Source of the DNA: Candidatus Magasanikiibacteriota bacterium
Lineage (GTDB): Bacteria > Patescibacteriota > Patescibacteriia > Magasanikbacterales > UBA922
Reading direction: 5' to 3'
Length of the DNA: 64,000 bases
Assembly (NCBI GenBank): GCA_016193335.1
Contig: JACPSK010000008.1
Span: forward strand, 1,589-65,588
Part shown: in pieces, positions 5,580 to 45,498 of the stretch
Layout of the letters: each line of letters starts with the position of its first letter
Numbering within the stretch: position 1 is the stretch's first letter
Notes under the pieces: model-generated
Database searches by the model: none
What the model was told of the DNA's origin: nothing
What the model saw: the letters and a program-made list of their open reading frames with translations, nothing else
Program-made: the position numbers and the translations under genes

Positions 5580-6254
5580 ATGAAGAAACTCATTATCCTC
5601 TCTTCTCTGGTTCTCTTGGCAGGAGCAGGCTGTTCGCAAGCGAGCCTGGAACCAAAAAATGATAGAACAAGCGAGCCAACAGAAAATACAGCAGACAAAC
5701 AAGAAGGAGCTACTGAAGAAAAAAGTGATGAACCAAAAAATGAAACGGCTGTGACGACTACAGATTCCGAGAATGAAAAAACAGAATCCGGAATGAATGT
5801 TGAAGCAGAGATAAAAGCTAATATAGAGACCAAAACTTCCAATGAGGAAAAACCAGAGGAAATAAAAGAACCTGCGCAAGCAAGTTCAAAGTCTGATGCA
5901 GGCGCAAAAACAGAAGTAGAGACAACACCGGCAGCCTCTTCGGATAAAACAACAAACTCTGGCCAAGAAGCAACTCAAAGCACAAAAGAATTTTCAATTA
6001 CCGCGAAAAAATGGGAATTCGTCCCTTCCACTATCACGGTGAATAAGGGAGACAAAGTGCGATTGGTGGTGCAAAGCCTTGATGTGGACCATGGTTTTGC
6101 CATTTCAGAATTCGGGATAAAAAGGACTCTGAAACCGGGGCAAAGTGAAACCGTTGAGTTCATGGCAGATGCCTCTGGCAGCTTCTCTTTCTTTTGTTCT
6201 GTTTCTTGCGGTTCTGGACACAGCTCTATGAAAGGCACGCTTATTGTTAATTAA
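5580..6254 (+). CDS. lipoprotein with C-terminal CuA-type cupredoxin domain (cytochrome oxidase subunit II-like)
   Basis: Signal peptide with lipobox (LLAGAGC). An E/K/T-rich linker. The C-terminus DVDHGFAI...KPGQSETVEF...FFCSVSCGSGHSSMKG gives the COX2/N2OR CuA ligand pattern H...C-x3-C-x3-H-x2-M. Confidence 0.6.
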   Translation: MKKLIILSSLVLLAGAGCSQASLEPKNDRTSEPTENTADKQEGATEEKSDEPKNETAVTTTDSENEKTESGMNVEAEIKANIETKTSNEEKPEEIKEPAQASSKSDAGAKTEVETTPAASSDKTTNSGQEATQSTKEFSITAKKWEFVPSTITVNKGDKVRLVVQSLDVDHGFAISEFGIKRTLKPGQSETVEFMADASGSFSFFCSVSCGSGHSSMKGTLIVN

Positions 6255-15268: not shown

Positions 15269-16726
15269 GTGAACATCCCAAAAACCATGAGCACTCAGCA
15301 TCCGGACAATGTGCATGTCCCCTTTTTCGCCGAAGATTCCGTCTTGGGCGGTGAAGACGAAATACAAGAAGCCTTCTATGCTTATTCACATCTCAATTGC
15401 CATGAACAAATGTGGGATTTTGAAGGCAAAGAAGTGGATAATTTTGTCGTAAAAAAACTCCTGAGCAAAAATGAAATTTTCTTCAAAAAAAACAAACTCG
15501 GCCAAGACTTGCGCCTCACCTTTCGGGTGCCGAATCCTGAGGTGGAAAAAGCCGAAGCCAAAATTCTTTTGGAAACATTGGAAAGCATTCCCCGTTCTTT
15601 CGACGCGGCAAAATTGTTTTACAAACAAGACATAGCGCCTGTCTTTGAGGTCATTTTACCGATGTCAAAAAATGCCGAGGAACTCAACCGAATTTACTAT
15701 TATTACAAAGACATGGTGGCCGGCAAACAGCAGCGCAACTTGAACGGCAATGACATGACCATCGCCGAGTGGATCGGTGAATTCAAACCAGAAACAATAA
15801 ATGTCATTCCCCTATTTGAAGACAAAGAAGATCTGCTCAGAGCCCATGAAGTGGTGAAAAAATTTCTGAAAGGTAAACATATGAGCTATCAACGGGTGTT
15901 CCTCGCCCGCTCGGATCCAGCGGTAAACTACGGATCTCTAAGCGCGGTCCTACTGAATAAAATAGCTCTCCAACGCCTGCAAAAAACATCAAAAGAACTG
16001 GGCATACCGCTCTACCCCATTTTGGGAGCCGGCTCTGCCCCATTCCGAGGAAATTTAAGACCTCAAACCGTAGAGCGAATGATTTTAGGCTATCCGAGCG
16101 TGCACACCTATACTATCCAATCTTCTTTTAAGTTCGACCACCAGCCCGAAGATGTGCGAAAAGCCATAGAACACATTAACAACCACGAAAGTGGAGAAGC
16201 AATAGAAATAGACGAACCAAGAGCTCTGGAAATCATAGAACGCTACAGCGCCGAATACAGGAAACAAGTAAAAAAACTCGCTTCAGTCATCAACAAAATT
16301 TCTCCTTTCGTACCAAAAAGAAGAAAACGGAAACTCCATATAGGTTTGTTCGGATATTCTCGAGATATGGACGGCATACGTTTGCCCAGGGCCATTACCT
16401 TTACAGCGGCTCTGTATTCCATAGGAATACCTCCAGAGCTGTTAGGCCTCAATGCTATCACTCCTGAAGACAAATCTTTCATCAACTCGGTATACACAAA
16501 TTTTGAATATGACTTAAGAGACCCATTGCGCTATACTAATATACGCAGTCCTTTTATGCCGCCTGAAGTGGAACAAAGTATCCGCCCTCTCATGGAGCAC
16601 ACAGAAAGCGATGCTTATCACGCCCAGCTCATTCATCTCATGTGTAAAGGACTCCAAGAAAACGTTCATGATGAATTGAAAACTCAAATACTCGAAGCGG
16701 CGAGGATCCGCGGATATTTGGGATAA
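15269..16726 (+). CDS. ppcA: phosphoenolpyruvate carboxylase, archaeal type (PepcA)
   Basis: N-terminus NIPKTMSTQHPDN matches the hallmark IPRxMSTQHPDN of the roughly 500-aa atypical archaeal-type PEPC. Length 485 aa. GTG start. Confidence 0.65.
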   Translation: MNIPKTMSTQHPDNVHVPFFAEDSVLGGEDEIQEAFYAYSHLNCHEQMWDFEGKEVDNFVVKKLLSKNEIFFKKNKLGQDLRLTFRVPNPEVEKAEAKILLETLESIPRSFDAAKLFYKQDIAPVFEVILPMSKNAEELNRIYYYYKDMVAGKQQRNLNGNDMTIAEWIGEFKPETINVIPLFEDKEDLLRAHEVVKKFLKGKHMSYQRVFLARSDPAVNYGSLSAVLLNKIALQRLQKTSKELGIPLYPILGAGSAPFRGNLRPQTVERMILGYPSVHTYTIQSSFKFDHQPEDVRKAIEHINNHESGEAIEIDEPRALEIIERYSAEYRKQVKKLASVINKISPFVPKRRKRKLHIGLFGYSRDMDGIRLPRAITFTAALYSIGIPPELLGLNAITPEDKSFINSVYTNFEYDLRDPLRYTNIRSPFMPPEVEQSIRPLMEHTESDAYHAQLIHLMCKGLQENVHDELKTQILEAARIRGYLG

Positions 16727-21924: not shown

Positions 21925-22058
21925 AGAAAGACTTTTTTATTGGCCCTTTACATGAACTGTATCATATGATGATGAACAATTCTCGTAAAGTGCCAGGCGA
22001 ACGCGAAAAACGCTCGCCAAGGCCTCCCGAAAGAACAGGTGACAAGAGCTCTCTCCCC

Positions 22059-23510
22059 TTAACCGAAAAGCTCCTGATGGATGGCCACGTAGGCTCTTTC
22101 GTAATCTTGGGTAGCAACCCCGACCACGAATCCCACACGCGAACCGCCCACGTCCATATGATGGACCGAAGCTATGCCGGCTCTCCCCAGAGCGCCGAAA
22201 ACACGCCCAAGGATGTCCACGTTGCCTGCGGACAAACGTTCGCCCGTAACCAGGATAATCGAGAGCCCGCCCTCGATCCCAAACTTCTCCGGAGCGAATC
22301 GTTTCCTGATTGCTCTTTCAAAGAGCAAACGGCGAGAGGAATCCTCGAGCAAGTCCTCCCCGTGCACCGAGACCATCACGGCGTCTCTGCCTGTCGCCAC
22401 GTCTGAGATAGACAGACCATAGGCCGCGACCGTGGCACAGATAAGCTCGAGGCCTCCTGCCGCCACGTCAAAACCATCCTTAACGAGGTTGACGGCTGTA
22501 AGCCCTGTCACCCCGTTCATCAAGGTAACGACCGAGCCTTCGGCGTCTCCTTTGGGCACGATCCATGTCCCTGGCGCCTCAAGCTCGTCACAGCTTGCGA
22601 TGTGGATTTTCAGCCCGGGCTTCAAACGATGCACAGCGCTGATCGCGTCGGCATGGAGCGGTTGGGCGCCTGCTTCGCGCAGAACTCTGTGCCACATCGT
22701 TCCAATGGTACGAGGCTGAATGCCATACCTCCGCAAGAGCTCCGGATCTCCGGTGAAGACGCCCTGGACAGCCTTGCGTACTTCAAGCACTCCCACCTGG
22801 TCAAGCGCGCAGGCCACTATGGCGGCCGTCACGTCTGTCCCGCCAAAAGGCAAGAGGCGGTGTAGAGGCTGGGCGTCTGGGACGCTCCCCACACGGTCCA
22901 CGCCCACAAAGCCGGCCATCACAAAAGGTATCCCTCGTTTCAAACGGGCAAAAACGTTTCGAACATTGGCCTGGCAGCTCCGCCAATCCGGTATACCGTC
23001 TGCGCCAACCTCTATAGTTTCGTAGGCACTGAGAATCGGGTATCCGAGCCAGCGATGCAAAAGCTCGGTCATCATGCACTCACCAGAACCCACGGCAAAA
23101 GCCTCTGAGCCCGGTAGAGAAGCCTCGAGCTTGGCATCAATCTGAGCGCGCTGTCTTGAGAGTACGAGAAGTACTCTTTCAGGATCAAGAAGACCCCGGA
23201 AAGCAGCGCTGTAGAGATTCTCAATCAAAGTCCACAAGGTGTCTCTTGTAAAGGTGAAAGGACCATGTTCTTTATTGATCCCGTCGAAATCCTTGTTTTT
23301 GATGCCCGCGTTTGGAGATCTCAACAGTACGAGATTCACATACATGAGCAACAAAGGAGTAGCTCTGAGACCGTTTCTCGCAGGCGCAGAAGTTACGATC
23401 CCAATGTACGCAGAATCTCCTTCAGCACCCTCAACCAACCGCCGCAGAGCTTCCAAACGCTCCGGGAAACCGGCCACCTCACCACCGATCTTAAGAATTC
23501 GTGCCCCCAC
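22059..23510 (-). CDS. lysC: aspartate kinase-like amino-acid kinase with C-terminal ACT domains; GC-rich relative to neighbours
   Basis: Amino-acid-kinase core (LPFGGTDVTAAIVACALD...TGDPELL) and an ACT-like C-terminus (ILVTGERLSAGNVDILGRVFGALGRAGIASVHHMDV). GTG start. Local GC is about 60% against about 45% in flanking genes. Confidence 0.55.
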   Translation of the reverse strand: MGARILKIGGEVAGFPERLEALRRLVEGAEGDSAYIGIVTSAPARNGLRATPLLLMYVNLVLLRSPNAGIKNKDFDGINKEHGPFTFTRDTLWTLIENLYSAAFRGLLDPERVLLVLSRQRAQIDAKLEASLPGSEAFAVGSGECMMTELLHRWLGYPILSAYETIEVGADGIPDWRSCQANVRNVFARLKRGIPFVMAGFVGVDRVGSVPDAQPLHRLLPFGGTDVTAAIVACALDQVGVLEVRKAVQGVFTGDPELLRRYGIQPRTIGTMWHRVLREAGAQPLHADAISAVHRLKPGLKIHIASCDELEAPGTWIVPKGDAEGSVVTLMNGVTGLTAVNLVKDGFDVAAGGLELICATVAAYGLSISDVATGRDAVMVSVHGEDLLEDSSRRLLFERAIRKRFAPEKFGIEGGLSIILVTGERLSAGNVDILGRVFGALGRAGIASVHHMDVGGSRVGFVVGVATQDYERAYVAIHQELFG

Positions 23511-23860
23511 TGTTAATCTCCCTTCGTGAAAGTGAAGTCCGCCTGCACAGGCGCCTGGCCAGAACCAGGATACGCTCCCTCAAGCCGGCCGACCCTCCGG
23601 TACTGAGAAGGACCGGTCTGAATGTAAGCATCTCCGCTCACTACGACCTCCTTGCCTTGAACCCGAAGGTCTCGACGTTGGACAAAGAGCCTACAGCCAG
23701 TCTCTTCCCCCTGGTTCAGTCGCCAGCCGCCAAAACAAAGCATGGTCAGAGAGCCAGAATCAAAATCGCGCCGCTCAGGAAAAGCCGTTATCCTCATCTT
23801 GCTGTTTCTCCCTCTAGGTGTGTTGTCCGCAGGCCCCTGTGGCCACAAAGCCACAGAAGA
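23511..23860 (-). promoter_or_regulatory. GC-rich leader upstream of lysC; candidate lysine riboswitch (the overlapping 128-aa ORF is doubtful)
   Basis: The minus-strand leader contains TAGAGGGAGAAACAGCAAGATGAGG, which resembles the L-box 5' consensus UAGAGGUGCGAACUUCAAGAGUAUG, and a GAGCGGCGCGA element. Not verified. Confidence 0.25.
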
Positions 23861-24060
23861 TGCTGACAACAAAAATCCCCCGTTGTATCGAGGGATCATG
23901 TTTTAGTACAAAAAACACTAACCCTCAGGGAGGATTTTGCCGTTCTTCTTAGCTTCATTCTGTGTGGAACAATTATTCATAAACAAAACAATAGTATCAT
24001 GATACTTCCCTAAGTCAAGTTTCATTTATCCACTCCGCAACGCATTGCTCCGCGCTCGGA

Positions 24061-32130: not shown

Positions 32131-32808
32131 TCAAAGCGAATTTTTGCGTACTACGCAAAGTGGTGTTTGTTCATTCGTCTGGCCAAGAGGATTATCACGG
32201 AAGACAGCTCGGGCCCAGGCTTTATCAATTTTTTTTGAGGAACGGCCCAAAACATCCACGCCAATATCATTGGCATCGATGATGACCACATCGTGCCCAA
32301 AGCGCGCTTTAAGGTCTGCGGCGACACTATTCGGATTTTTAGGGGCCAAAGTGGCATATTGGTTATAGGGAGGCAGGGTATAGGAACAAGGCCCATCAAT
32401 CGCGGCGGCTTGGCGACCCGCGATATGATAAAACATTCCTTTTATACCCAAGGGTTTGGTAAGAGCGGCAACAAGAGCTCCGAGCAGAATACGGGCAAGC
32501 CCCACTTCTTTGATAGCCAAGTGCATTGTCTCAGGGATTCCGAGGCCGATCCCATATTTTGATTTGTGCACAAAATGAGTGAGAAAACGAGCCCAGAAAC
32601 CGGGTTTTATATCTTTTATGGGAATCGCGCGTCCCTGCGTGATAGCGACCACGCGTTCGCTGATAAACAAAACATCACCTGGAGACAGATTTTGAACCGC
32701 GTAGCGTTCCACTATATCGGATATCCTGTCGTCCGGGCCGACAACATGAGTGCGTATCGGAAAACGTTCGTATACGATTCCCTGCGCTTCTATGGAAGAT
32801 GAAACCAT
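32131..32808 (-). CDS. CofE-like (F420-0:gamma-glutamyl ligase family) protein
   Basis: VVGPDDRISDIV...VLFISERVVAITQGRAI pattern of the CofE/F420-ligase fold. ATG at 32808 is preferred over the GTG at 32868. Confidence 0.5.
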   Translation of the reverse strand: MVSSSIEAQGIVYERFPIRTHVVGPDDRISDIVERYAVQNLSPGDVLFISERVVAITQGRAIPIKDIKPGFWARFLTHFVHKSKYGIGLGIPETMHLAIKEVGLARILLGALVAALTKPLGIKGMFYHIAGRQAAAIDGPCSYTLPPYNQYATLAPKNPNSVAADLKARFGHDVVIIDANDIGVDVLGRSSKKIDKAWARAVFRDNPLGQTNEQTPLCVVRKNSL

Positions 32809-32909
32809 ACTATATTTATGATAATTATTGGTTCCAAAAATATCACAAACCAATAAATCCGTTACCACCCACCAAGGGCAACCTCTTTCAATTTCGCTGA
32901 ATGTAAAAC

Positions 32910-34858: not shown

Positions 34859-36745
34859 TTAAGCCTCGTCTTTATCCCCTTTCATCGAACGTTCAAATTC
34901 CTGTTTGGCGCGCTCAATGTCCAAGAGTTGTTTGGGATCAGAAGTAATTAACTGATCTTCGGTATATGAGGCTATTACTTTTATGGCGGCGTGTTTATTA
35001 CCCGCGAAAAATATTCCCTCCCCTACCGCGCTTTCCAAAAGCAGATATTTTTCTCCCTCAGTGAGCATAAAAACCCGCTGAATCATATCTATAGAAGCCG
35101 GGGACTGTCGAAGCAAAAGCTGAAGAGCAGAATTGGTTACAATGGCCTGCCCGTAAGGAGAACGCAAAAAATCGTTAACATCCTGAGTAATGGTAGTAAC
35201 GCCCAAATAATATTTTCTGCATCGTTTAACCAAAGCATAAATAAATTTGGCGCTGTCTTCGTGTTGCATGAGCCACCAAGCTTCATCAATGATTAAGATG
35301 CGTTTTTTCCGTTCAGAACGGACGATATTCCATATATAATTAACGAGAGTGTAAATGGCCATGGGTCTGAGCTCATCTTCCAAATCGCGGACACTGAAGA
35401 TCACTAGCTGGTTGTCCACGTTCACATTAGTCGGAGAATTGAAAAGGCCGGCAAAAGTGCCGAGAGTATATTTTTCCAGCTTCAAAACCAAATCCTCTGC
35501 TCCTTCCATCCCTTCGAGGATATCCAATAAATCCTGCATGATGGGAGCTTCAAGATTTCTCAAATCAGAATTCGGAGTTATATCTTTTTTAGCATAGGTT
35601 TCAAGAAGCGCTCTGTCCAAAATAGAATCTTCACTGGCAGAAAGAGTCCCAAACATGATACGAAGCAGACCTTTTAAGGTAATGACAGCGCTTCGTATGA
35701 TATCTTCCACCGAAGCCTGGCCACCCACCGGCTTGGGCAAATCAAAAGGATTGACCTTGCTCTCAGAGGCCAAAGAAATACTGATATAGGTTCCACCAAC
35801 CGCTTCAGCTAGATGCAAATATTCCATTTCAGGATCTATAACAATAATATCAATACCCATCATCAGACTGCGGAGAACCTCCAATTTTACGGCGTAGGAT
35901 TTGCCGGCGCCCGAAGTGGCGAACACAACCATGTTGGCGTTTTGTAAAGAAAAACGATCGAATAAAATAAGACTGTTATTGTGCCTGTTTATACCGTACA
36001 AAATGCCATTATCACTGGTAAGTTCCGAAGAAATAAAGGGAAAAGACGCCGCTATGGGCGAAGAGTTCATATTAAAAGCTATGGTAAGCTCGTCTATGCC
36101 CAAAGGCAGAGTTGATGTAAAGCCTTGTTCGGCCTGAAATAAAACATTTTTCGTGTAAATCAATTTTGACCCGAACAGATTTTCTATGTCTTCTGAAGTT
36201 TTGTCCAGTTCTTCTTTGTCCTGAGCGTATATGGTTACATAAAAAGCGAACTGAAAAAAATGCTCGACCCCTTGGGTCAGATCATCCCGAAGCTGTTCTA
36301 TATCCCGCAAGGCCGTCTCCCGAATCGGGTCTCTCGGAGCCCCTTTCTCGGCGTCAGAACTTATCTGAGCCTCGAGAGCTCCCACTTTTTTCTTGAGTTG
36401 TTTGAGGATAATCGCGGAATTGACCGGATAAAAAAACATGCTTACATCCATGGTAATATTCAAATTCAAAACAGGAGCGCTCCACCCGACCGCGATATAA
36501 CGGGGATAAGTAACCACAAAAATCGTCCGCAAAAAGGTATTGCCAAGCTGAACAAAAGTAGATTCCACTTTAAAAGCAGAAGGCGCGATAAGATCCTGGA
36601 TAGCCACGGTTCCTTCGCGGTACACCCGTTCTTCTTCCAAGCTGATCAATTGTTGTTCGATGTCTTCGCTTTGTTTTTTTCTCCTTCTGAAAGAACCTCT
36701 TTTTTCAGGAGATCCCTGACCGAAGGATACTGGTTTAAACGGCAT
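34859..36745 (-). CDS. virB4: type IV secretion VirB4/TrbE/CagE-family ATPase (ATPase body)
   Basis: Walker A MVVFATSGAGKSYAVK followed by DIIVIDPEMEY, and Walker B RILIIDEAWWLM...TTITQDVNDF. The N-terminus IAPSAFKV...GNTFLRTIFVVTYPRY matches the VirB4 linker region. Confidence 0.75.
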   Translation of the reverse strand: MPFKPVSFGQGSPEKRGSFRRRKKQSEDIEQQLISLEEERVYREGTVAIQDLIAPSAFKVESTFVQLGNTFLRTIFVVTYPRYIAVGWSAPVLNLNITMDVSMFFYPVNSAIILKQLKKKVGALEAQISSDAEKGAPRDPIRETALRDIEQLRDDLTQGVEHFFQFAFYVTIYAQDKEELDKTSEDIENLFGSKLIYTKNVLFQAEQGFTSTLPLGIDELTIAFNMNSSPIAASFPFISSELTSDNGILYGINRHNNSLILFDRFSLQNANMVVFATSGAGKSYAVKLEVLRSLMMGIDIIVIDPEMEYLHLAEAVGGTYISISLASESKVNPFDLPKPVGGQASVEDIIRSAVITLKGLLRIMFGTLSASEDSILDRALLETYAKKDITPNSDLRNLEAPIMQDLLDILEGMEGAEDLVLKLEKYTLGTFAGLFNSPTNVNVDNQLVIFSVRDLEDELRPMAIYTLVNYIWNIVRSERKKRILIIDEAWWLMQHEDSAKFIYALVKRCRKYYLGVTTITQDVNDFLRSPYGQAIVTNSALQLLLRQSPASIDMIQRVFMLTEGEKYLLLESAVGEGIFFAGNKHAAIKVIASYTEDQLITSDPKQLLDIERAKQEFERSMKGDKDEA

Positions 36746-36758
36746 AGAAACTTTTTCT

Positions 36759-37457
36759 TTATAATCCCCTCTCCACCTGCAAATCCTCCACTGAACTCAT
36801 CGTCTCGCCATAAGAAATATCAGGATTAAAGGTGGAATAATATAACTCTATGAGCGCCTGGGTATCCAGCTGGACAGCCGTAACGCCCACGCTCGAGAGT
36901 CCGGAAATAACTTGACGTACTCTCATGTCCAAGTCTTCTTTGCGTTGTCTGAACCGGTCTTCTTTGAGACGGATACTCGCCATTGGTCTGAGCACGTCTT
37001 TTGTTCTGCTAAAAAAACTTTTTTTTGTGTTGGAGAGCGGATCATATGGAACGACCACATAATATCGTTTGGTCATAATCTGGCCGATATCCACCAATTC
37101 TTTCACAAAGGCTCGGTAATCCGCTATCTGTATGCGTAAAAGTTCATTTTTTTGTTTTGCTTCGATGCTCGCCAATTCTTCGAGATAGGGCCTAATCTGC
37201 AGACGCCTGGATTGAACCACAATTTGCAAAGGAAAATCTATGGAATTCAAAAAACCCACATACGAAGAAATAAGCGCGTTTTGTTCGTCCTCCGACTTCA
37301 AAGCGAAATTTATGCTTGAGGTTAAAAGCACGGCCCGTGTTGTCCCGTCTTTTAAAACAAGCACGCCCTCTTTTATTTCAGAAATGGGTAGATGAGTTTT
37401 GGTAGCCGGACGTTTGGCTTTCTTGGTCTTTTTTTTCTTACTTTTCATATGATACAA
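36759..37457 (-). CDS. VirB4 N-terminal-domain-like protein (separate ORF; possible split or frameshifted VirB4)
   Basis: LPISEIKEGVLVLKDGTTRAVLLTSSINFALKSEDEQ...FPLQIVVQSRR resembles the CagE_TrbE_VirB N-terminal domain. The ORF ends 14 nt before the ATPase ORF in the -1 frame. Confidence 0.45.
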   Translation of the reverse strand: MYHMKSKKKKTKKAKRPATKTHLPISEIKEGVLVLKDGTTRAVLLTSSINFALKSEDEQNALISSYVGFLNSIDFPLQIVVQSRRLQIRPYLEELASIEAKQKNELLRIQIADYRAFVKELVDIGQIMTKRYYVVVPYDPLSNTKKSFFSRTKDVLRPMASIRLKEDRFRQRKEDLDMRVRQVISGLSSVGVTAVQLDTQALIELYYSTFNPDISYGETMSSVEDLQVERGL

Positions 37458-37460
37458 ACG

Positions 37461-37895
37461 CTAAACAGTGTCTTCAGGCTTATAGAAACCGCCCGTGTTG
37501 GCCAAAAGCGCCAAGTCTCTGATGCGTTCACGTTTCACCGGTTCTTTCGTAGGGGTTTCAGAAAGCTCTGAAGTAAAATTTTGTTCTCTCAAAAAATTTA
37601 AGTCCTTATCAGTGTAGACTTTGTTCCAAATTCGAAGGGAAGGTTTGCGCAAAGTTTGAAGTATATTCAATAAAAAATAATGGAAATTCTGGCCATTGAT
37701 TTTAACGAACGCGAATAACAAAGCCGCGCCTCCCACGACCGCAAGAGTAAAGATGAATAATGACAAATCACCATAACGAAAACTGAGAAAAATCACAACG
37801 CCGGCAACCAAAAGAATGACAAATTGGCGTATGGTGATGGGTCCAAAAATCTTGTCTTCAACATCTATAAATTGTGGAACAACAAATTGCTGCAT
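37461..37895 (-). CDS. small 2-TM protein, PrgI/VirB3-like by architecture and position
   Basis: MQQFVVPQFIDVEDKIFGPITIRQFVILLVAGVV followed by a second TM helix. It lies immediately upstream of the VirB4 ORFs, as PrgI and VirB3 do. Confidence 0.4.
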   Translation of the reverse strand: MQQFVVPQFIDVEDKIFGPITIRQFVILLVAGVVIFLSFRYGDLSLFIFTLAVVGGAALLFAFVKINGQNFHYFLLNILQTLRKPSLRIWNKVYTDKDLNFLREQNFTSELSETPTKEPVKRERIRDLALLANTGGFYKPEDTV

Positions 37896-37903
37896 AGTGT
37901 TTC

Positions 37904-39166
37904 CTAGGTTCTCAAAGCTTTATGCACTTCAAGAAAGGCAAAACATTCTTCAAGGCTCGGAGATTGTCCGGCACTTTCTTTGGAGAGAATCTGAGATAAA
38001 CCGGTACCTTCATTGATGGCCCTTACGAGCAGGGCCTGATATTGTCTGAACAAAAAATTCTGGAACCATGCTCTGCGCGCTTCAAGATAAAGCAAAAAAG
38101 ATTCTCCTTTCAAAGCTTCAAATTTGGCCGAAACCTGCTTTGCCGCGCTTTCAGGGTCCTCGGCAAGGCGCCGAAAATCCATCAAAGAAAAACCGAACAT
38201 TTCTTCAACCGGACCCGTCGCCTTTGATATGGGCTCGACGGGCGGGGTCATATCATGGAGAGATGCGGAAGGAACGCCCACAGCTCGAAGCTGTCCCGAG
38301 GAGAGAGATCGGTGTCCTCGGGACCTGGCACCTTGTTTCAACAAAACAGAGGCCAAGTCATGGGTCAAGGTTTCCACGGGTTCAGGCGGTTTCGGAGCCT
38401 GAGCAAGGGCGATATCTCTGAATATATCTTTCACCGGCGTAGTGGTAGACAAGGCCTGAGAAGTTTGATTAAGCGCAAGAGCTTCTGACTCCACTTTAAG
38501 TTTTGATTTTTTAGAAATATTTGGTTTTAAGGCTTTTAGCTCCTCTTGCCGAAAAAAAGCCAGCGTTTTCTTTTTTTCTTCCATCAGAAGCGTAAGACGC
38601 GCGGATTGTTCTTTGGTGAGCCCCAAGCCCCCGCTCGCGAAAGGCGCCACTGCGTATTCATGAAACTGCGCTTTGTCTCGCACGCCTTTAAGAAAAGAAA
38701 GAACAAGTGAATGCGCTCGGGCCTGAACTTCTGAAGACAAAACCACAGGAAATTCCTGAAATATTCCCCTCAGCGCGTAATCCGGACCGATTTTGTCGCT
38801 TAATTCTTTATCAAGCAGTTCTTCGTGGGACAAAGCCTCATCCAAAAGCGACGCATGGTCTTCGGCTTTCCAAACAGTTTTAGGAGGCGTCCGCTTGGTT
38901 TTAATAAGCAAAGGAGAATTCCGTTTCTCAATCTTTTTTACGCTTGTCTGAGACTGGACCGGCTCTGCGCGAGTCTGCGTAGATGTAGATTTTGCATTCT
39001 GTGTCGGTTCAGCAAGCGTCTTAGAGTCAAAATTCTCCTCTTTGAATTTCAAAGATGTCGGGTTCAAAGTGCTGGCCTGCTTAAGGCTACTCAAAGAAAC
39101 ACGGATTGTGCTTCCATCCGTTTTTTTTACCAATACGCTCGGCCCTGTTACTGCTGGTGTTGGCAT
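37904..39166 (-). CDS. hypothetical protein (T4SS-like operon member)
   Basis: 420 aa with no TM helix and an S/T/K-rich, probably disordered N-terminal third. Translationally coupled to its neighbours (8-nt gap). Confidence 0.4.
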   Translation of the reverse strand: MPTPAVTGPSVLVKKTDGSTIRVSLSSLKQASTLNPTSLKFKEENFDSKTLAEPTQNAKSTSTQTRAEPVQSQTSVKKIEKRNSPLLIKTKRTPPKTVWKAEDHASLLDEALSHEELLDKELSDKIGPDYALRGIFQEFPVVLSSEVQARAHSLVLSFLKGVRDKAQFHEYAVAPFASGGLGLTKEQSARLTLLMEEKKKTLAFFRQEELKALKPNISKKSKLKVESEALALNQTSQALSTTTPVKDIFRDIALAQAPKPPEPVETLTHDLASVLLKQGARSRGHRSLSSGQLRAVGVPSASLHDMTPPVEPISKATGPVEEMFGFSLMDFRRLAEDPESAAKQVSAKFEALKGESFLLYLEARRAWFQNFLFRQYQALLVRAINEGTGLSQILSKESAGQSPSLEECFAFLEVHKALRT

Positions 39167-39170
39167 GATT

Positions 39171-40262
39171 TTATATGTTTACTCCTGTAAAAAAGGATTC
39201 ATCCCATTTGAAGGTCTGACTTTTCTCATCAAAATATATCACCTCATCTATGGACTGAAGCCCCCGCGCTTTGAGAGCGTCCAGGAAAGTGGTCAAAAGT
39301 TCTACATGCCTGGCCTTATTCAAATCAACTTTTTTCATGAGAATAAACAAAAGTTTCGTGATATAGGCCTCTTCTTTTTGTGTAACATCCAACCAATGCA
39401 CCGCCTGTTCATAATCTTCGAGCCATTGTTCTATGCCTTTTTCATCGGCTTCGTATAAATTCTGAAGATAATATTCATCCACGTTCTTCTTCTCTCCCTC
39501 TTGCTTTCGTTCATAGCCCGCCGGCACGCCGTCTTCTATCTCTCTCCAAATAAAACCACCCTGCAACCCGTAATAGAGGGTCATTATTTTTTCGAGCCAG
39601 GCACGCGTGTCTGTGTCTTGTCTCGAGACTTCCATCATGTTATTCATAAACTCAGGAACTTTGCTCTCTATGGAAGCAGTGTAATAATTGTCGAACATAT
39701 CCAGCCATTCGCCTATCTTATACACAGCTTTACCTTCTGTCCCCAACAGCGTATGATTTCTCGCCATGATTCTCGCGAATAGCAAAGAATCATCCCACAT
39801 GCCTCTCACATAGGCCAAACGCCTGAAATAATCTTGGACATGAGTGTAAATGGGAATCTCCCAAATACAAGCCTTGAGTAAAAAGCGCGTGCCGAGGAGA
39901 AAGAGCTGGCGCTTGGCAGAAATATAATCAAAATGCATCCAGGCGAAAAAGGTGTAGAAGCGTTCGTAAAAATCCTGGTCTTCTTCGGAAAAATCCGCGA
40001 ATACCAAACTCCCGTCGCTCCACCCTTCGAGTGAACGCAAAATATCATCCACCACTCCCTCATAATAAAACTGAAACTGATGCAAAGTTTTTATCAAGTG
40101 ATACTTGGTGTCTGTTTGAAGTAAATCAGGTCTTTGCACGTTTTTCCAGCTCATGGAGTAATATTCAGAGCCTCGATCCTGGCAAGCGTCAAGAATAGCC
40201 TGCTGTTCTTCATCAGTTTTGGAAGGGTAGAGATAACGAATTGTTTGGGCTAGAGAAAACAT
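39171..40262 (-). CDS. hypothetical acidic W/Y/F-rich protein (T4SS-like operon member)
   Basis: 363 aa, no TM helix, many aromatic residues, and gaps of only 17 nt and 4 nt to its neighbours. Confidence 0.4.
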   Translation of the reverse strand: MFSLAQTIRYLYPSKTDEEQQAILDACQDRGSEYYSMSWKNVQRPDLLQTDTKYHLIKTLHQFQFYYEGVVDDILRSLEGWSDGSLVFADFSEEDQDFYERFYTFFAWMHFDYISAKRQLFLLGTRFLLKACIWEIPIYTHVQDYFRRLAYVRGMWDDSLLFARIMARNHTLLGTEGKAVYKIGEWLDMFDNYYTASIESKVPEFMNNMMEVSRQDTDTRAWLEKIMTLYYGLQGGFIWREIEDGVPAGYERKQEGEKKNVDEYYLQNLYEADEKGIEQWLEDYEQAVHWLDVTQKEEAYITKLLFILMKKVDLNKARHVELLTTFLDALKARGLQSIDEVIYFDEKSQTFKWDESFFTGVNI

Positions 40263-40278
40263 ATCATTCTGTTATTAG

Positions 40279-43200
40279 CTATCTTTCGTCTTCGAGTCCA
40301 AGAACTTCAGCCGGGGGTTTATAACTGGGCGGAGCAGACAGGCCAGGACCAAATTTACCTCCTCGGACCATGCCAATAAGTTCATCCACCGTTGTAATTT
40401 TCTTTTTCTCAACACTTCCTGTTGTTTCGTCATAAATCGGAATGAGAAGCTCCATGGCGCCTTTTTTAAGGGCTTCGGGCTGAGACATACCAGTGGTTGC
40501 CGCCATAGTGAGCAAAAAGTCGGCCATATTGGAATGCATTTTGGGAACATACAATTCTCGCACAATATTGCGAGCGGTGAGTGCCTCCTGAATCTGGGCT
40601 TGCTGAGCTTTGCTTTTGCCGGCCATAGCCCTCTTGTATTGATTCCCGCTCTTGCGCATCCAAGTAGACTGTGCGCCCTTCGAAGCGCCAACCTTAAAGA
40701 ATCCTGTTTTCTCATCTTTGTATTCATAAAGTTGATCCGAGGCCGCGATGCCGGCAAGACTCTTTATGTATCTGCCCGTGGTGCCGGACCAGGTTCTGAA
40801 ATCTATAATACCATTGCGCATAATGGCATCATCATGTGTGCGCAAACGAGTCGCAACTTGGCCATTGTCTTCGTCCAAGTCCATGGTAGCATGAGGATGA
40901 GCTCCGGCGCGAAGCCTGGTGTCTGTTTTGTTTGCGTCACTCAATACATTGTCGCTTGCCATACCCACGCCAGAAGGAACATACAATTTTTCCCCGCCAC
41001 CGATATCATGCATCAAAGCCCAGCCAGCGTTTTCTCCATGGCCTTTTTTGATAGCATCATTGCGCAAGTTGCCCAAAAACTGCATGGATGACTGATTGGA
41101 TCGAATCACGTCCGTGTATTTGTCCATTACTTCTCTGCGTCTGGCTTCCACTTCCGCGTTTTCTCCTTCCAAAAGCAAATCCAAAAGATCTTGCTGAGCG
41201 CCGGTAAGAACTCTGTCTTGCTCTACCAGAGAATCCATCACCTCTTTTTTCAAATCTGAATTATTCACGACATTACCTTTGGTATCCACGAACTTCCCTG
41301 TTTTCATGCCCGAATACAAACCGGCGACATCCATGCCCAATTTTTTCGTGCCTGCGTCCAATACCTCTGAAACAGCCACATTGTTGCGAGCGAAAGTCAA
41401 ATCTCCTCCTGAGGCAAACATCATTTCAACGTCTCTTATTTTGTCTTTGCTAAATTCCATGTCTTTCCATCCCAAGACATTTCCTATCTGTCCGCGGGCT
41501 TCTGAATTTGACATGACCGAAATGATAACATCATCCACCCAAGATTCGTTGAAACCGCGCTTAAAGAGCCCCATAAGCGCGGCCCTGTCCGCGTCTTGGA
41601 GATCTCCGGACTGCACTTTATCAACAGCTTTTAAAAGCATATCCCCGGCGCTGGCCACAAAATTGCCGTAAGACATCTCGGAAAAACCCTTTTCAAATTC
41701 TTCGATAAGCTCGGTCAAAGTGGTTTTTGGCGTATCCACGCCTCGCTTGTCCCAGATCACCCGCTGTTCCGCGTCACTCAAAACCAAATTGTGCCTATAT
41801 TTGTATACGCGATTGGCTTCCACTGCCTGAGACGCCGCGACTCCATACTGCCAGGCGGTAGCGCCGCCCGCGTCCATATCTGCTGCCACCTTATCGAGCT
41901 TTGCGGCCTCTTTTAATCTCCCTTGTTCCGTAAGATTTTGGGCGATGCCTCTTACTGTTCCAGAATCTCCTTTGCGAATCGCGTCAGCCTGAACACGCAA
42001 ATCTTTCTTAAGACTATCGAGCTCGGTCCTGTCACCGGTTTTGTTTTCCAATAAATTCGCTATTTCAGTCTGCCCCTTTGTAATGGCGTCCGCAAGAGTG
42101 TCTATATCCCCTTTATTTTGAGCTATGACAGCTTCCAAAGCCTTTCTTTGATCCTTAGACTCTTCATCTTCGCCCGTGATCTGCTCCAAATCTTTTTGAT
42201 GCTGTCTGTTCTGTCGTTCCAAACGCTCTTTTTCCGACTTATTTGTATCTTGTTCTGTGGCCTTAGTCATCAAAGAGTCAGAAGTAATTTTAATTCCTTT
42301 AGTGAGTTCTTCGATTCTCTTTCTGGTTGTTTCGTCTGTATAGGCTCCGGATTCCACCCTGCCTGCCGTGGCATCCGCCTCGGTGGCGGCTGCCAATTTT
42401 TCAGAAATTCTCGTTTGAAGCAAAGTCTCTTCTTGCTTGCTGAGTCTATCAGAACTCAATTTGGCAAGAGACTGCTCTTCGAGAAATTCATCATAGGTCA
42501 TCTTACTCGGCGCTGTCCAAGATTTGGCTTTTATAGTGTCTGCCTGCGCTTGTTTTACCGCAAGATTTTCCATCAGCCTGCTTTCATACAAGCTTCTGCC
42601 GTCTCCTGCGTCAAGATCGGTCTGCCCTAATTCGCCGGATATAATCTCTGCTTCAGCTATCTCTCTCCCCAGAACCGCCCTTCTCTCTGGGGTCATCTCT
42701 GATGGATCCAAGGTACGTCTTTTTTGAGCAATCTGCGCGCCCACTTTATCGCGAGCTTCTTGGCCGGCCGCTTGATTGTAAGCCGCTTGAAGCGGCGCCA
42801 ATTGTTCATCTGTTTGATCCATTTGCTTTCTGGCGGCCTCTAATTTACTCTGATTGTCGACTATATCCTCGCCCGCGTCAATCCCTGCTTGAGCCTCTAC
42901 AGCTGTTGCGTTGAAATTTGACTTTTTGAACTCCAAAGCGTCTATCTCTGCTTGCAATTGTTTCGCAGTCATTTCTTTTCCATCCTTGCCTTTGGCTGTG
43001 GTCAAAACATCTCCGGAAAGCATTGCCTGTTTTTGAGCTTCAAGTTCTGAAACTTCACCTTCAATCTTTTCACGTTCAACAGGGTCGGTGACACCGTCCC
43101 GCTCCTGGCGCAGAGTTTTGAGTTTGCTCTCTATGCTCTTGGCCAAATCACCGCTTCTCAAATCTCTGAGCTGTTCATTTATTTTATCCATGTCTTTTTG

Positions 43201-45498
43201 CACCGGCTCCAGCTGTTTTTGCACAGACTGAAAATTGCCGCTCACGCGGAGCCTGGCATCAGCCTGCATTCTCTTTTCTTTGTTCGATTCTTTCTCTCCG
43301 GTAAGGGTATGATCTTGAATACGCTCCATCATGGTGCCGGCCGCGCTTTCATAAGACATTTTGCCAGTCTTCACATTGTACTTGAGCCTGGGCTTGCTCA
43401 AGACTTCGTTTTTGCCCCTGCCCTCGTAGTCTTTGTCTTTGGCTTCTGAACGCATTTTTTCCGCCGCGAGCCAGCCGCGCTCTATACGGTCTTGAGCTTC
43501 ACGGCCCGCATATATATCGCCGAAGAAACCAACCCCTTTGCCGTCTTTTGTTTTGTTACCCATCATTTTTCCAATCCAGCGGGTTCCAAAAAGACCTCTC
43601 GTGCCCATGCCAACTTGCATAACCGAATTCCATGGTTTTGCGATAAGATTTTTGATACCCTGAGTGCCGGGAATGCCCAAAATATTAGTGCCTTCTTTCA
43701 TGGCCATAAACTGACCACCGGCTTCTGAACCCACACGTTTCCATAAAATTTCTTTTCTCACTTCGGCCTGCTTCTTGGATTTCTCAGTTTGCTTTTCAAG
43801 TTCAATGCCCGAACGAGAGAAGCGTCCCAAAAGACCGCCGGAAAATGAACTCTTAGCCACTTTTTCTTGTTGTTTGATTTCCTGATCCAAGGCCGCCAAA
43901 TCCTCTTGATTTATGCCAATGGTGGCGTCTTGCAATATCTGCCGCTGTTCAGCGATTTCTTTATCCAAGCTTTGTGTCTGTTCCGGGGAAATATCTGAAC
44001 CAAGCTTTTGCTTGACGCCTTCCAGACGGTCTATCTCTCTCATCGCATTTTGCTGAATCGCTCCTTTTTCGTCTCCCTTTGCCTCGCCTGCTTCTTTTCG
44101 TTTGTACAATTTGTCCAAAGATTCTCTAGCCGCTTCTCCTTTTGGAGACATTCTCATGCCCAGCTCGCGGTAGGAGCCCACTATGGAATGCCCTATATTC
44201 TTAAAACGATTCGCGAATTTCTCTCCGCCAAGTACTGGCATTTTCCAGAGAGCAGCTTTGCCGCCCTTCTTGGCCACGGACCAAGCTCCTTTTGCCGCTC
44301 CGCCCACCATCCATCTGCCGAGCGCGTAGCCACTCGCGATAGTGCCAATTTTTTTGCCAAAATCCACTGCTTTGTTCACCAAATTCGCTCCGGCCGCTCC
44401 GGATTCACTGACTTCTTTTATGCCAATATACAGAAAGACAATGGCTATAAAAAAATTGGCCATGTTTTCCCAGGTGGAAACCTTGGAAAGAGAAAGAGAA
44501 AATTCTTCGTCTGTGTTCACTTGTTGAAGTGGAATAACGGTATCTCCTGTAAAATCTCTTTGTATTATTTCTCCGTGGCCGAGAGTTGCGAAAGCAAGCC
44601 AAAGAAAAAATACCATCAAAGGCGCCACCATGACCTCTTGGCTGAATTCCTTCCACCAACGCTGGGCATAATGCTGGGTATTGGGCAAAACTTGGGTTAC
44701 ATACGCAATGGGCGAAAGTATAATGAGCGTCCAAAGCAAAACAACCCGAAGGAGCATAATCACCACATAGGCCGCCAACGTTACCATGGCTATGAGAGCA
44801 AAGACAAAAGCGATAAAAGCGCCGCCCAATAATTCTATCTGCAGATTATCCGCGTTCGAAGCGTCTTGCCCGCCCACGAATCTCATCATCTCATCAAGCT
44901 TGAACATGTTTATGATGTTGCCTCCTGCAGTGGCGGAAATGGCGTTGAGGAAGGTAATGGTAAAAACATGAGCAGCGTCTATAAAAAGCTGAGCGATAAC
45001 ATTGCTGAAATTTATAAAAACAGCGGCGAGAATGAGCTTTACCAGGCTCTTTTTCCATTCGTATTGTTCTATGCCAAGAATGGTGGCAAAGGCTATAACA
45101 AGCAAAATCACCACGAAAAACATGTTCGCCACGTCTCGGACCATCACCCAGCCCAATTTTACCACCGAGGCATTGATAAAATCATTGTAACTGGCCAAGG
45201 TGATAAAAAATCTGAGCAAAAACACGGTCATGCCAATGGCAAGCCTTGAAAGGGTCAAAAGAAGCCAGGTCATTCCCGCGATCAGCCCGTCCGCGATACT
45301 GTCTAAAATCGCGAAAGAAGGAAGCGCGAAAAAAACGCCTGCAACCAAAATAAAAATACCAAAAAAAAGCAAGAATTTTTTCTCCTGCAAGCGTTTCGGC
45401 AGTATATGGCCGCTCAGCTGTTTGATACGAGATACTATACTATGCAAAAAGGTTCGCATGCTTTTCGCGATAGAAAGATTATGCTTAGAGTATAGCAT
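40279..45498 (-). CDS. giant (1739 aa) polytopic membrane protein with a long coiled-coil and C-terminal globular region; VirB6/TrbL-like candidate
   Basis: At least six to eight hydrophobic helices in the first 400 aa. A roughly 600-aa E/K/Q/A-rich coiled-coil segment follows, then a roughly 600-aa C-terminal region of unknown fold. First gene of the operon. Confidence 0.5.
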   Translation of the reverse strand: MLYSKHNLSIAKSMRTFLHSIVSRIKQLSGHILPKRLQEKKFLLFFGIFILVAGVFFALPSFAILDSIADGLIAGMTWLLLTLSRLAIGMTVFLLRFFITLASYNDFINASVVKLGWVMVRDVANMFFVVILLVIAFATILGIEQYEWKKSLVKLILAAVFINFSNVIAQLFIDAAHVFTITFLNAISATAGGNIINMFKLDEMMRFVGGQDASNADNLQIELLGGAFIAFVFALIAMVTLAAYVVIMLLRVVLLWTLIILSPIAYVTQVLPNTQHYAQRWWKEFSQEVMVAPLMVFFLWLAFATLGHGEIIQRDFTGDTVIPLQQVNTDEEFSLSLSKVSTWENMANFFIAIVFLYIGIKEVSESGAAGANLVNKAVDFGKKIGTIASGYALGRWMVGGAAKGAWSVAKKGGKAALWKMPVLGGEKFANRFKNIGHSIVGSYRELGMRMSPKGEAARESLDKLYKRKEAGEAKGDEKGAIQQNAMREIDRLEGVKQKLGSDISPEQTQSLDKEIAEQRQILQDATIGINQEDLAALDQEIKQQEKVAKSSFSGGLLGRFSRSGIELEKQTEKSKKQAEVRKEILWKRVGSEAGGQFMAMKEGTNILGIPGTQGIKNLIAKPWNSVMQVGMGTRGLFGTRWIGKMMGNKTKDGKGVGFFGDIYAGREAQDRIERGWLAAEKMRSEAKDKDYEGRGKNEVLSKPRLKYNVKTGKMSYESAAGTMMERIQDHTLTGEKESNKEKRMQADARLRVSGNFQSVQKQLEPVQKDMDKINEQLRDLRSGDLAKSIESKLKTLRQERDGVTDPVEREKIEGEVSELEAQKQAMLSGDVLTTAKGKDGKEMTAKQLQAEIDALEFKKSNFNATAVEAQAGIDAGEDIVDNQSKLEAARKQMDQTDEQLAPLQAAYNQAAGQEARDKVGAQIAQKRRTLDPSEMTPERRAVLGREIAEAEIISGELGQTDLDAGDGRSLYESRLMENLAVKQAQADTIKAKSWTAPSKMTYDEFLEEQSLAKLSSDRLSKQEETLLQTRISEKLAAATEADATAGRVESGAYTDETTRKRIEELTKGIKITSDSLMTKATEQDTNKSEKERLERQNRQHQKDLEQITGEDEESKDQRKALEAVIAQNKGDIDTLADAITKGQTEIANLLENKTGDRTELDSLKKDLRVQADAIRKGDSGTVRGIAQNLTEQGRLKEAAKLDKVAADMDAGGATAWQYGVAASQAVEANRVYKYRHNLVLSDAEQRVIWDKRGVDTPKTTLTELIEEFEKGFSEMSYGNFVASAGDMLLKAVDKVQSGDLQDADRAALMGLFKRGFNESWVDDVIISVMSNSEARGQIGNVLGWKDMEFSKDKIRDVEMMFASGGDLTFARNNVAVSEVLDAGTKKLGMDVAGLYSGMKTGKFVDTKGNVVNNSDLKKEVMDSLVEQDRVLTGAQQDLLDLLLEGENAEVEARRREVMDKYTDVIRSNQSSMQFLGNLRNDAIKKGHGENAGWALMHDIGGGEKLYVPSGVGMASDNVLSDANKTDTRLRAGAHPHATMDLDEDNGQVATRLRTHDDAIMRNGIIDFRTWSGTTGRYIKSLAGIAASDQLYEYKDEKTGFFKVGASKGAQSTWMRKSGNQYKRAMAGKSKAQQAQIQEALTARNIVRELYVPKMHSNMADFLLTMAATTGMSQPEALKKGAMELLIPIYDETTGSVEKKKITTVDELIGMVRGGKFGPGLSAPPSYKPPAEVLGLEDER

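Follow-up and report, generated by a model that had tools for sequence, protein, structure and literature searches.

The CuA centre has one known job, rapid one-electron transfer, and CuA centres are textbook parts of two respiratory enzymes, compared here through the cytochrome oxidase subunit CoxB and the N2O reductase NosZ. A natural CuA-type site outside these enzymes occurs in PmoD/AmoD, an exported cupredoxin domain of methane and ammonia oxidisers; the site of PmoD spans a homodimer interface and has a different ligand arrangement. Nitrosocyanin, a small soluble cupredoxin, is a mononuclear red copper protein with one Cys, two His and one Glu as ligands. Here we describe a stand-alone CuA-type cupredoxin lipoprotein encoded in a 64-kb stretch of DNA (hereafter the window) from a Candidatus Magasanikbacteria metagenome-assembled genome (MAG), belonging to the Candidate Phyla Radiation (CPR) of bacteria, and compare it with these systems and with its relatives.

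Genes described as "nosZ-like" were reported from DPANN archaea of marine oxygen-deficient zones, where they were found in 21 of 33 MAGs (PMC10936187, mBio 2024). The encoded proteins carry a signal sequence and CuA but no CuZ, they occur in genomes without respiratory genes, and a DPANN homologue failed to complement a nosZ deletion of P. aeruginosa (PMC10936187). Among bacteria, groundwater Patescibacteria are reported to lack complexes I-IV of the electron transport chain but to encode copA (PMC8672522). Where CPR possess oxidases, one complete operon encodes the subunits, and some CPR have acquired cytochrome o oxidase operons (PMC9166423). Cupredoxins of CPR have been proposed as electron donors of the copper nitrite reductase NirK (PMC5581439; PMC12931201).

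CuA site and predicted fold

An exact look-up matched the product of the open reading frame (ORF) to NCBI MBI2990455.1, a "cupredoxin domain-containing protein" of a Candidatus Magasanikbacteria MAG, and the identical protein is present on seven contigs of related groundwater runs. Four further proteins of the window bear this organism name. Its C-terminal domain passed the cutoffs of both Pfam Cupredoxin_1 (PF13473; 52.5 bits, E = 5.5e-14, cutoff 27) and Pfam COX2 (PF00116; 39.4 bits, E = 6.8e-10, cutoff 22). In a phmmer search against PDB sequences, CuA-domain constructs of Thermus thermophilus ba3 oxidase were the top matches (E = 1.8e-11), with all ligands aligned. The canonical CuA ligand set is complete, comprising H171, the two bridging cysteines C206 and C210, V208 at the position of the backbone-carbonyl ligand, the second histidine H214 and the axial M217. 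The first histidine lies in the sequence DVDHGF (aa 168-173), 35 residues ahead of the first cysteine, and the other ligands are gathered in the motif FFCSVSCGSGHSSMKG at aa 204-219, in which FF precedes C206 and KG follows M217. Because of the Pfam scores, the matches to PDB sequences with the ligands aligned and the ligand spacing, the resemblance to CuA is not a matter of chance.

The predicted structure of the domain points the same way. An AlphaFold model built on an alignment of 34 diverse homologues reached a mean predicted local distance difference test score (pLDDT) of 91, and Foldseek superposed it on the ba3 CuA domain (2cua) with a root-mean-square deviation of 1.2 Å over 88 columns (template modelling score 0.83) and on NosZ CuA domains with deviations of 1.1-1.6 Å over 92-94 columns. 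Across 2cua, 2qpe and the NosZ CuA domains, the template modelling scores ranged from 0.83 to 0.86, at deviations of 1.1-1.3 Å. By family score, ligand set and superposable predicted fold, the ORF product is confirmed to contain a CuA-type cupredoxin domain. The original prediction, which was made from the DNA letters without database searches, had placed a CuA site with the pattern H, C-x3-C-x3-H-x2-M in the C-terminal part of this ORF; the ORF and both of its motifs are there, and the model and the two Pfam families bear the assignment out.

Protein layout

The 224-aa protein consists of three parts, namely a lipoprotein signal ending at Cys18, a 117-residue acidic linker predicted to be disordered, and an 89-residue cupredoxin domain (Table 1). 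Residues 1-18 are MKKLIILSSLVLLAGAGC, a signal peptide that closes in a lipobox-type Cys. By pattern, it contains the n-region, the hydrophobic h-region and the lipobox of bacterial lipoproteins (MKK-LIILSSLVLLAGAG-C18), and the "GAGC" ending of the lipobox is seen again in CPR homologues. In the linker, 92% of the residues are polar or small (E, T, S, A, K, N, D, P, Q or G) and the net charge is -15. Its pLDDT was below 50 in a single-sequence AlphaFold model of the full protein, a poor model overall (pLDDT 57) that served only for the prediction of tether disorder. An origin of the linker by tandem repetition was rejected, as one weak 15-bp two-copy match was the only repeat detected. These features agree with the original prediction of a lipoprotein signal and an E/K/T-rich linker in place of the COX2 transmembrane hairpin. 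The reverse-strand ORFs that overlap the gene are short and unsupported, and a scan for promoters and terminators gave counts no higher than in shuffled sequence.

Table 1 Features of the cupredoxin gene and its product, in window coordinates
Feature	Position	Strand	Basis or remark
Stand-alone CuA-type cupredoxin lipoprotein gene, complete	5580..6254	+	224 codons and stop, ATG start
Signal peptide with lipobox (MKKLIILSSLVLLAGAG-C)	5580..5633	+	Sequence pattern
Codon of Cys18	5631-5633	+	Predicted lipid-attachment residue
Disordered acidic E/T/S/A/K-rich tether, aa 19-135	5634..5984	+	Composition, model pLDDT
CuA-type cupredoxin domain, aa 136-224, eight/nine-stranded Greek-key beta-sandwich	5985..6251	+	Pfam, AlphaFold, Foldseek
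His171, first histidine ligand	6090..6092	+	Lines up with the CuA His of Thermus ba3; invariant in the 34-sequence alignment
CuA ligand loop C206-S-V208-S-C210-G-S-G-H214-S-S-M217	6195..6230	+	Residue-by-residue alignment to ba3 CuA; C, C, H and M invariant in the 34-sequence alignment
Codon of C206	6195-6197	+	
Codon of C210	6207-6209	+	
Codon of H214	6219-6221	+	
Codon of M217	6228-6230	+	

Since the ligand set is invariant, an export signal is present and the domain is strongly conserved, the gene appears to encode a CuA protein that is functional and is held outside the membrane on a long flexible tether. We consider that the window protein is probably a genuine lipid-tethered extracytoplasmic CuA electron carrier. 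Its putative copper binding and electron transfer are inferred from the sequence and the modelled fold, and its candidate partners from related loci.

Comparison with known copper proteins

Against the CoxB model (TIGR02866), the window protein scored 53.1 bits, compared with a cutoff of 147.7, and only the CuA part aligned (model positions 119-191). The window protein lacks the transmembrane hairpin of CoxB, its sole hydrophobic segment being the 17-residue signal peptide before the lipobox Cys. No gene for subunit I (CtaD/CoxA) was found in the window or, across 56 related loci, in the set of 211 immediate neighbours. The CuA domain of Thermus ba3 oxidase (2cua, 1ehk) shares with the window protein its fold, about 30% sequence identity, the ligands and the H-x35-C spacing. 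However, the window protein is predicted to be anchored by a lipid and a disordered tether, and not by an N-terminal transmembrane helix or hairpin.

The best NCBIfam alignments were to NosZ models, with 59.4 bits for the clade III lactonase-type L-NosZ and 58.2 for Sec-NosZ, followed by CoxB; a third NosZ model gave 47.7 bits. The cutoffs of the three NosZ models (700, 625 and 625, respectively) were missed ten-fold, and only the C-terminal CuA domain of NosZ was covered. The window protein has no catalytic beta-propeller or CuZ site. A split NosZ with a separately encoded propeller was rejected as well, in view of the negative complementation already published and of the neighbouring genes in related loci (211 genes in 56 loci), among which no propeller or His-rich gene recurred.

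Nitrosocyanin (1iby) resembles the window protein in its small size, solubility and strand topology (phmmer E = 4.3e-11), but the window protein reached only 41.6 bits against the nitrosocyanin model (TIGR03096; cutoff 142.85), and the nitrosocyanin loop lacks the Cys pair, the His and the Met. PmoD is alike in carrying a CuA-type site in an exported cupredoxin domain, whereas the window protein holds the full canonical ligand set in one domain. PmoD was absent among the phmmer matches to PDB sequences and the Foldseek matches, neither of which was a test aimed at PmoD.

The DPANN "nosZ-like" proteins come nearer. Their scores against a NosZ hidden Markov model were 20-58 bits (PMC10936187), and the window protein scored 58.2 bits. 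It differs from them in being bacterial, in coming from groundwater instead of marine oxygen-deficient zones, and in having a much longer acidic tether. From the published description (PMC10936187) and the DPANN homologues found here, we infer that the family of the window protein and the DPANN "nosZ-like" family are one and the same.

Family size, conservation and spread

A word-indexed search with the domain retrieved 145 proteins. Among the 120 matches listed, identity was 51-72%, and almost all the listed homologues were 81-175 aa long, i.e. single-domain proteins; for the homologues in general, identity was 50-72% over 80-100% of the query domain. An exhaustive HMMER scan of 1.84 billion cluster representatives yielded 7,562 matches with E <= 1e-3, of which 2,584 had E <= 1e-10. 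The pattern CxxxCxxxHxxM was found in 261 of 263 retrieved homologues. A hydrophobic N-terminal leader was present in 237 of these 263, and 174 of the 237 had a lipobox-like Cys too. In the alignment of 34 diverse homologues, the H, C, C, H and M ligands and flanking glycines were invariant, while leader and linker could not be aligned; the tether differs in length and sequence among homologues. The window protein thus has the architecture of the family, with a single CuA domain at the C-terminus, an N-terminal export or anchor signal, a variable low-complexity linker and no fused catalytic domain. A scan of metagenomes with the full protein gave 36 loci, mostly short.

Some members carry extra modules, such as SLH-like N-termini or, in several CPR proteins, a further beta domain. 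In CPR homologues at five of the related loci (numbered L001 and so on), an extra domain of about 110 residues lies between the lipobox and the CuA domain (L012 4183-5049, L019 5026-5943, L053, L056 and L058) and contains the conserved motifs W-x-V-I-H ... G-x-x-I-G ... A-M-L-H-x-D.

When GTDB species representatives were scanned, 348 genomic relatives were confirmed. Of the 80 best, about 41 are DPANN archaea (Woese-, Nano-, Micr-, Aenigmat- and Undinarchaeota), about 21 belong to the CPR (Magasanik-, Falkow-, Kerfeld-, Peregrini- and Saccharibacteria) and 18 are Terriglobia or other Acidobacteriota. These counts include relatives with apparently wrong titles ("uncultured Gammaproteobacteria", "Methanosarcinales") at loci that share synteny with those of CPR or Woesearchaeota. 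The titles that appear to be wrong are those of L014 (OZ246405.1), L028, L031, L053, L056 and L045, and of L037, L038, L044 and L081; these loci lie on small genomes and are syntenic with loci of Magasanikbacteria, Kerfeldbacteria or Woesearchaeota.

Over its 88-residue domain, the window protein shares 62.5% identity with the syntenic CPR orthologue and just as much, 59-69%, with archaeal homologues from DPANN (P0026, P0037, L017, L035), Woesearchaeota and Nanoarchaeota among them. Judged from sequence identity, such similarity across domains of life would imply very strong constraint, horizontal exchange between CPR and DPANN, or both. The gene is not the singular oddity that it might have seemed when seen alone; the window protein joins a large, already noticed and functionally uncharacterised family, whose members carry the database label "cupredoxin domain-containing protein". 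What goes beyond the published accounts considered here is how widely the family is spread (CPR, DPANN and Terriglobia), the near-universal conservation of the ligands, the cross-domain similarity, and a recurrent neighbourhood of thiol-redox and metal-transport genes.

Neighbourhoods of relatives

Neighbouring ORFs were called and clustered in the best 80 relative loci, and the following counts are per 80 loci. Many DPANN loci are syntenic by descent and locus counts are therefore not independent; moreover, in 19 of the 80 loci, for the most part GC-rich Terriglobia contigs, the cupredoxin gene itself was not called as an ORF, so that Terriglobia contexts are under-sampled. The most widespread neighbour cluster was a membrane-anchored DsbA-like Thioredoxin_4 protein, found in 24 loci with 37 genes; ABC ATPases, a class included for comparison, were found in 16. 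DsbD_TM/CcdA proteins followed in 11 loci, a Cys-rich protein without Pfam match in 10, a thioredoxin (Trx)-like small protein in 9, HMA-domain proteins in 8, DoxX/MauE-like proteins in 7 (usually directly downstream, in 6-7 loci), VIT1 in 7, DUF4901-like proteins in 6, and CopA-type ATPases (DKTGT + CPC + GMxCxxC) in 5. A Pfam census of the 211 genes that lie at most two positions from the cupredoxin gene in 56 loci pointed to similar themes; it counted DsbD_TM 7 times, Thioredoxin_4/DSBA 6, DoxX 5, DsbD_2, VIT1 and HMA 3 each, and Cu-oxidase, Nramp and AhpC/Redoxin 2 each. Thiol-redox or copper neighbours were seen in only about 3 of the 21 CPR loci. The neighbours in Terriglobia (inositol monophosphatase, GH109-like oxidoreductase and type III polyketide synthase) gave no functional lead.

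P-type ATPases and other proteins became chained to the cupredoxin cluster by single linkage. They were rejected as family members, since a motif check found no CuA site in them, and the count of 94 members for this cluster was set aside. The ATPases are of CopA or P2 type, and the other proteins are HMA-DsbD_2-cupredoxin fusions or type-1 cupredoxins.

At L038, L050 and L060, all three archaeal, the cupredoxin gene has a gene for a NirK-like two-domain multicopper oxidase directly upstream and one for a ZIP-like transporter on its other side. The oxidase matches Pfam Cu-oxidase_2/3, and its best NCBIfam match was copper-containing nitrite reductase with 97.8 bits, below the cutoff of 296. These three-gene arrangements (L050 816-3590, L038 7846-10026 and L060 8077-10794) are from Nanoarchaeia-type genomes; their cupredoxins are 123-129 aa long and the ZIP/ZupT-like transporter has an extra N-terminal domain.

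Woese- and Nanoarchaeota encode, two genes away, a further CuA paralogue that is divergent (37.5% identity) and has the motif YxWEP...CTxYCGPGHxxM. The conserved gene order is VIT1, window-type CuA cupredoxin, small lipoprotein, DUF4901-like protein, second CuA cupredoxin, DsbD_TM/CcdA and a Cys-rich membrane protein (CEYCCG...CGCQHN, no Pfam match), followed by Trx-like proteins, a 385-aa Trx-repeat protein and a DsbA-like protein. This cluster, found at L001 7154-11138 and also in L016, L023, L032, L035 and L037 (Woesearchaeota/Nanoarchaeota), appears to be a module devoted to copper/thiol redox chemistry outside the cytoplasm.

Other arrangements were seen in single loci or pairs of loci. 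In the CPR genomes of L047 (3416-5095) and L065 (1918-2958), fusion proteins composed of DsbD_2 and Cupredoxin_1 domains, preceded by HMA in L047 only, have a Cys/Met-type site and not a CuA site; they adjoin family members and a DsbA-like gene, with a CopA copper ATPase in addition in L047. On a marine DPANN contig from Tara Oceans (L003 8001-13370), an operon for SUF iron-sulfur assembly is followed by the cupredoxin, an unknown exported protein, DoxX and a DsbA-like protein, and a Fe/Mn superoxide dismutase is encoded 4 kb beyond the DsbA-like gene. The DoxX and SodA of this locus recall the mycobacterial DoxX-SodA-SseA complex of thiol and oxidative stress.

Possible roles of the cupredoxin

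Because CuA is a dedicated one-electron relay, the window protein most likely acts as a mobile surface electron carrier. It would be exported by the Sec pathway, lipid-modified at Cys18 and anchored at the outer face of the cytoplasmic membrane, where a flexible and negatively charged tether of about 117 residues would hold the compact 89-residue domain. With a binuclear CuA centre presumably built from H171, C206, C210, H214, M217 and the backbone carbonyl of V208, it would be a free-standing counterpart of the electron-entry domain of CoxB and NosZ and may shuttle single electrons from an extracytoplasmic donor to an extracytoplasmic acceptor. As judged from its relatives, its surroundings may include thiol-redox proteins (DsbA-like, CcdA/DsbD_TM and DoxX/MauE-like proteins and TlpA-like redoxins), transporters of copper and other metals (CopA, HMA proteins, VIT1, ZIP and Nramp) and, as the minority of loci with a NirK-like two-domain multicopper oxidase suggests, a natural electron acceptor of that type. 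The neighbours of the relatives may be maturation factors, for reduction of the Cys pair and copper supply, or functional partners in a thiol-to-copper relay. The original prediction of an extracytoplasmic role in electron transfer or copper handling fits these related loci, with their thiol-redox genes, copper pumps and occasional NirK-like oxidases.

Several points weigh against an electron carrier. The copper stoichiometry and the redox activity of the family rest on sequence and predicted fold, and the window contains no gene for a donor or an acceptor. The neighbourhoods of the relatives are heterogeneous and have no universal partner, and the descent shared by many DPANN loci makes their counts non-independent. 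In addition, thiol-redox and copper-pump neighbours may serve only the maturation of a Cys-ligated copper site, as TlpA, CcdA, Sco, PCuAC and copper ATPases do for CoxB; if they are mere maturation factors, they give no information on function. Finally, such organisms are reported to be without quinones, cytochromes and terminal oxidases, which leaves an electron carrier with no obvious circuit.

Two alternatives name specific partners. The protein might donate electrons to a NirK-type nitrite reductase or a two-domain multicopper oxidase whose gene lies in another part of the genome, either to detoxify nitrite or NO or as part of a rudimentary respiration, a role that we regard as unlikely. 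The position of the cupredoxin gene directly downstream of NirK-like oxidase genes speaks for it but is confined to 3 of the 80 loci, with an oxidase that falls far under the NirK cutoff, and the window itself has no NirK or multicopper oxidase gene. Known donors of NirK are type-1 cupredoxins or cytochromes and not CuA proteins. A cupredoxin-to-NirK path was proposed for CPR (PMC5581439; PMC12931201), but most DPANN carriers are without other denitrification genes (PMC10936187). Alternatively, CuA could take electrons from DsbA-like, DoxX and CcdA-linked oxidoreductases in an extracytoplasmic thiol/disulfide relay, which would replace the DsbB/VKOR-quinone step where quinones are absent or dispose of reducing power exported via CcdA. 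The DsbA-like proteins as commonest neighbours, DsbD_TM/CcdA, the DoxX/MauE-like genes directly downstream, TlpA-like AhpC/Redoxin proteins, and the order of cupredoxin, unknown gene, DoxX and DsbA with Fe/Mn superoxide dismutase nearby in L003 would all suit such a relay. Identical genes, however, are expected where a Cys-ligated copper site has to mature, with its Cys pair reduced before copper is inserted. Thiol oxidation is not known for any CuA protein, a terminal acceptor was not identified, and such neighbours occur in only 3 of about 21 CPR loci and not at all in the window. A thiol relay is about as unlikely as a NirK partner.

A different kind of role, that of an extracytoplasmic copper buffer, chaperone or resistance factor, seems distinctly unlikely. 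CopA-type P1B ATPases in 5 and HMA-domain proteins in 8 of the 80 loci, the HMA-DsbD_2-Cupredoxin_1 fusions that adjoin family members in L047 and L065, the recurrence of VIT1, ZIP-like and Nramp transporters close by, and a weak NCBIfam match to CopI (E = 0.0011) are in keeping with it. But the invariant CuA set with its axial Met and the buried Cu2S2 geometry indicate an electron-transfer site rather than an exchangeable chaperone site, adjacency to copper pumps is equally expected where a cuproprotein has to be supplied, and the marginal CopI match (aa 116-166) lies outside the ligand loop. Most improbable is that the protein is a plain COX2 paralogue or relic serving as subunit II of a heme-copper oxidase, or else one half of a split N2O reductase, that with CuA, and that the matching catalytic subunit is encoded in another region of the genome. 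JGI and PROKKA annotations label relatives "cytochrome c oxidase subunit 2" or "nosZ". Yet the protein has no transmembrane hairpin and scored far below the cutoffs of the CoxB (53 against 147.7 bits) and NosZ models (48-59 against 625-700), and no gene for CtaD or a beta-propeller recurs among the 211 immediate neighbours. The long flexible tether would also be incompatible with the rigid docking to subunit I seen in oxidase structures. Although some CPR have acquired cytochrome o oxidase operons, the subunits of CPR oxidases form one operon (PMC9166423), and the DPANN homologue did not replace NosZ in P. aeruginosa (PMC10936187).

Returning to the lipid-tethered CuA electron carrier, we also considered a bolder extension of it, which is very unlikely as a whole: that the CuA domain forms the outward end of a minimal electron-disposal chain, free of heme and quinone, in ultra-small fermentative episymbionts. 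Cytoplasmic reducing power would pass through thioredoxin and CcdA/DsbD_TM to extracytoplasmic Trx, DsbA or DoxX proteins and from there to the CuA centre, and the 117-residue tether would let the centre reach a NirK-like oxidase, Fe(III), Cu(II) or redox proteins of the host cell to which CPR and DPANN attach. If true, this chain would be a new form of extracellular or interspecies electron transfer common to CPR and DPANN, probably spread by horizontal transfer.

Surroundings in the window

Upstream of the cupredoxin gene, dnaE lies divergently on the minus strand, and downstream a CBS-domain protein is followed by an ArsB/CitMHS/MamN-like permease, as the original prediction had described. 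Besides housekeeping genes, the remaining window contains a type IV secretion-like module and the SecY/ribosomal operon. No genes for an oxidase, NirK, a copper ATPase, Sco, DsbA or CcdA were found anywhere in the window; likewise, when every ORF of the window was compared by BLAST with the neighbour clusters of the relatives, none matched DsbA, CcdA, DoxX, CopA, multicopper oxidase or oxidase. The predicted lack of a nearby oxidase partner was thus borne out, and that of any respiratory-chain context holds for the 64 kb; its extension to the whole genome rests on published surveys of CPR (PMC8672522). The adjacency of dnaE and the cupredoxin gene is kept in three related genomes (L014, L028 and L031), one of which (L014) has dnaE (69% identity), the cupredoxin, pheT and rseP in common with the window. 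Given this conserved adjacency, the gene is a stable component of the lineage and is inherited vertically.

Other features of the window are noted here in their own right. The type IV secretion-like module (34859-45498, minus strand) encodes a TraG/VirB4-like P-loop ATPase, a TraC-like protein and a PrgI-family protein. After these come several ORFs without Pfam match, including one of 1,739 aa (40279-45498) where the AT skew is strongly negative (-0.30 at 42-44 kb). An archaeal-type phosphoenolpyruvate carboxylase (PEPcase_2; 15269-16726, plus strand) and a CofE-like protein of the F420_ligase family (32131-32868, minus strand) are both unexpected for CPR of minimal metabolism. The GC content rises to 0.55, compared with about 0.44 elsewhere, at 22001-24000, over a gene for a 483-aa AA_kinase-family protein (22059-23510).

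Significance of the family

The puzzle of the CuA cupredoxin is neither unique to the window nor previously unnoticed. Scores of 50-60 bits against NosZ and CoxB models and labels such as "nosZ" or "cytochrome c oxidase subunit 2" can inflate metagenomic estimates of N2O reduction and aerobic respiration. The occurrence of the family in groundwater CPR, soil Terriglobia and DPANN speaks against a role confined to marine oxygen-deficient zones and to N2O. A CuA centre that appears as an independent, lipid-tethered surface protein in thousands of clusters, concentrated in CPR and DPANN that are reported to be without electron-transport chains, raises a genuine question about the surface redox chemistry of these organisms.

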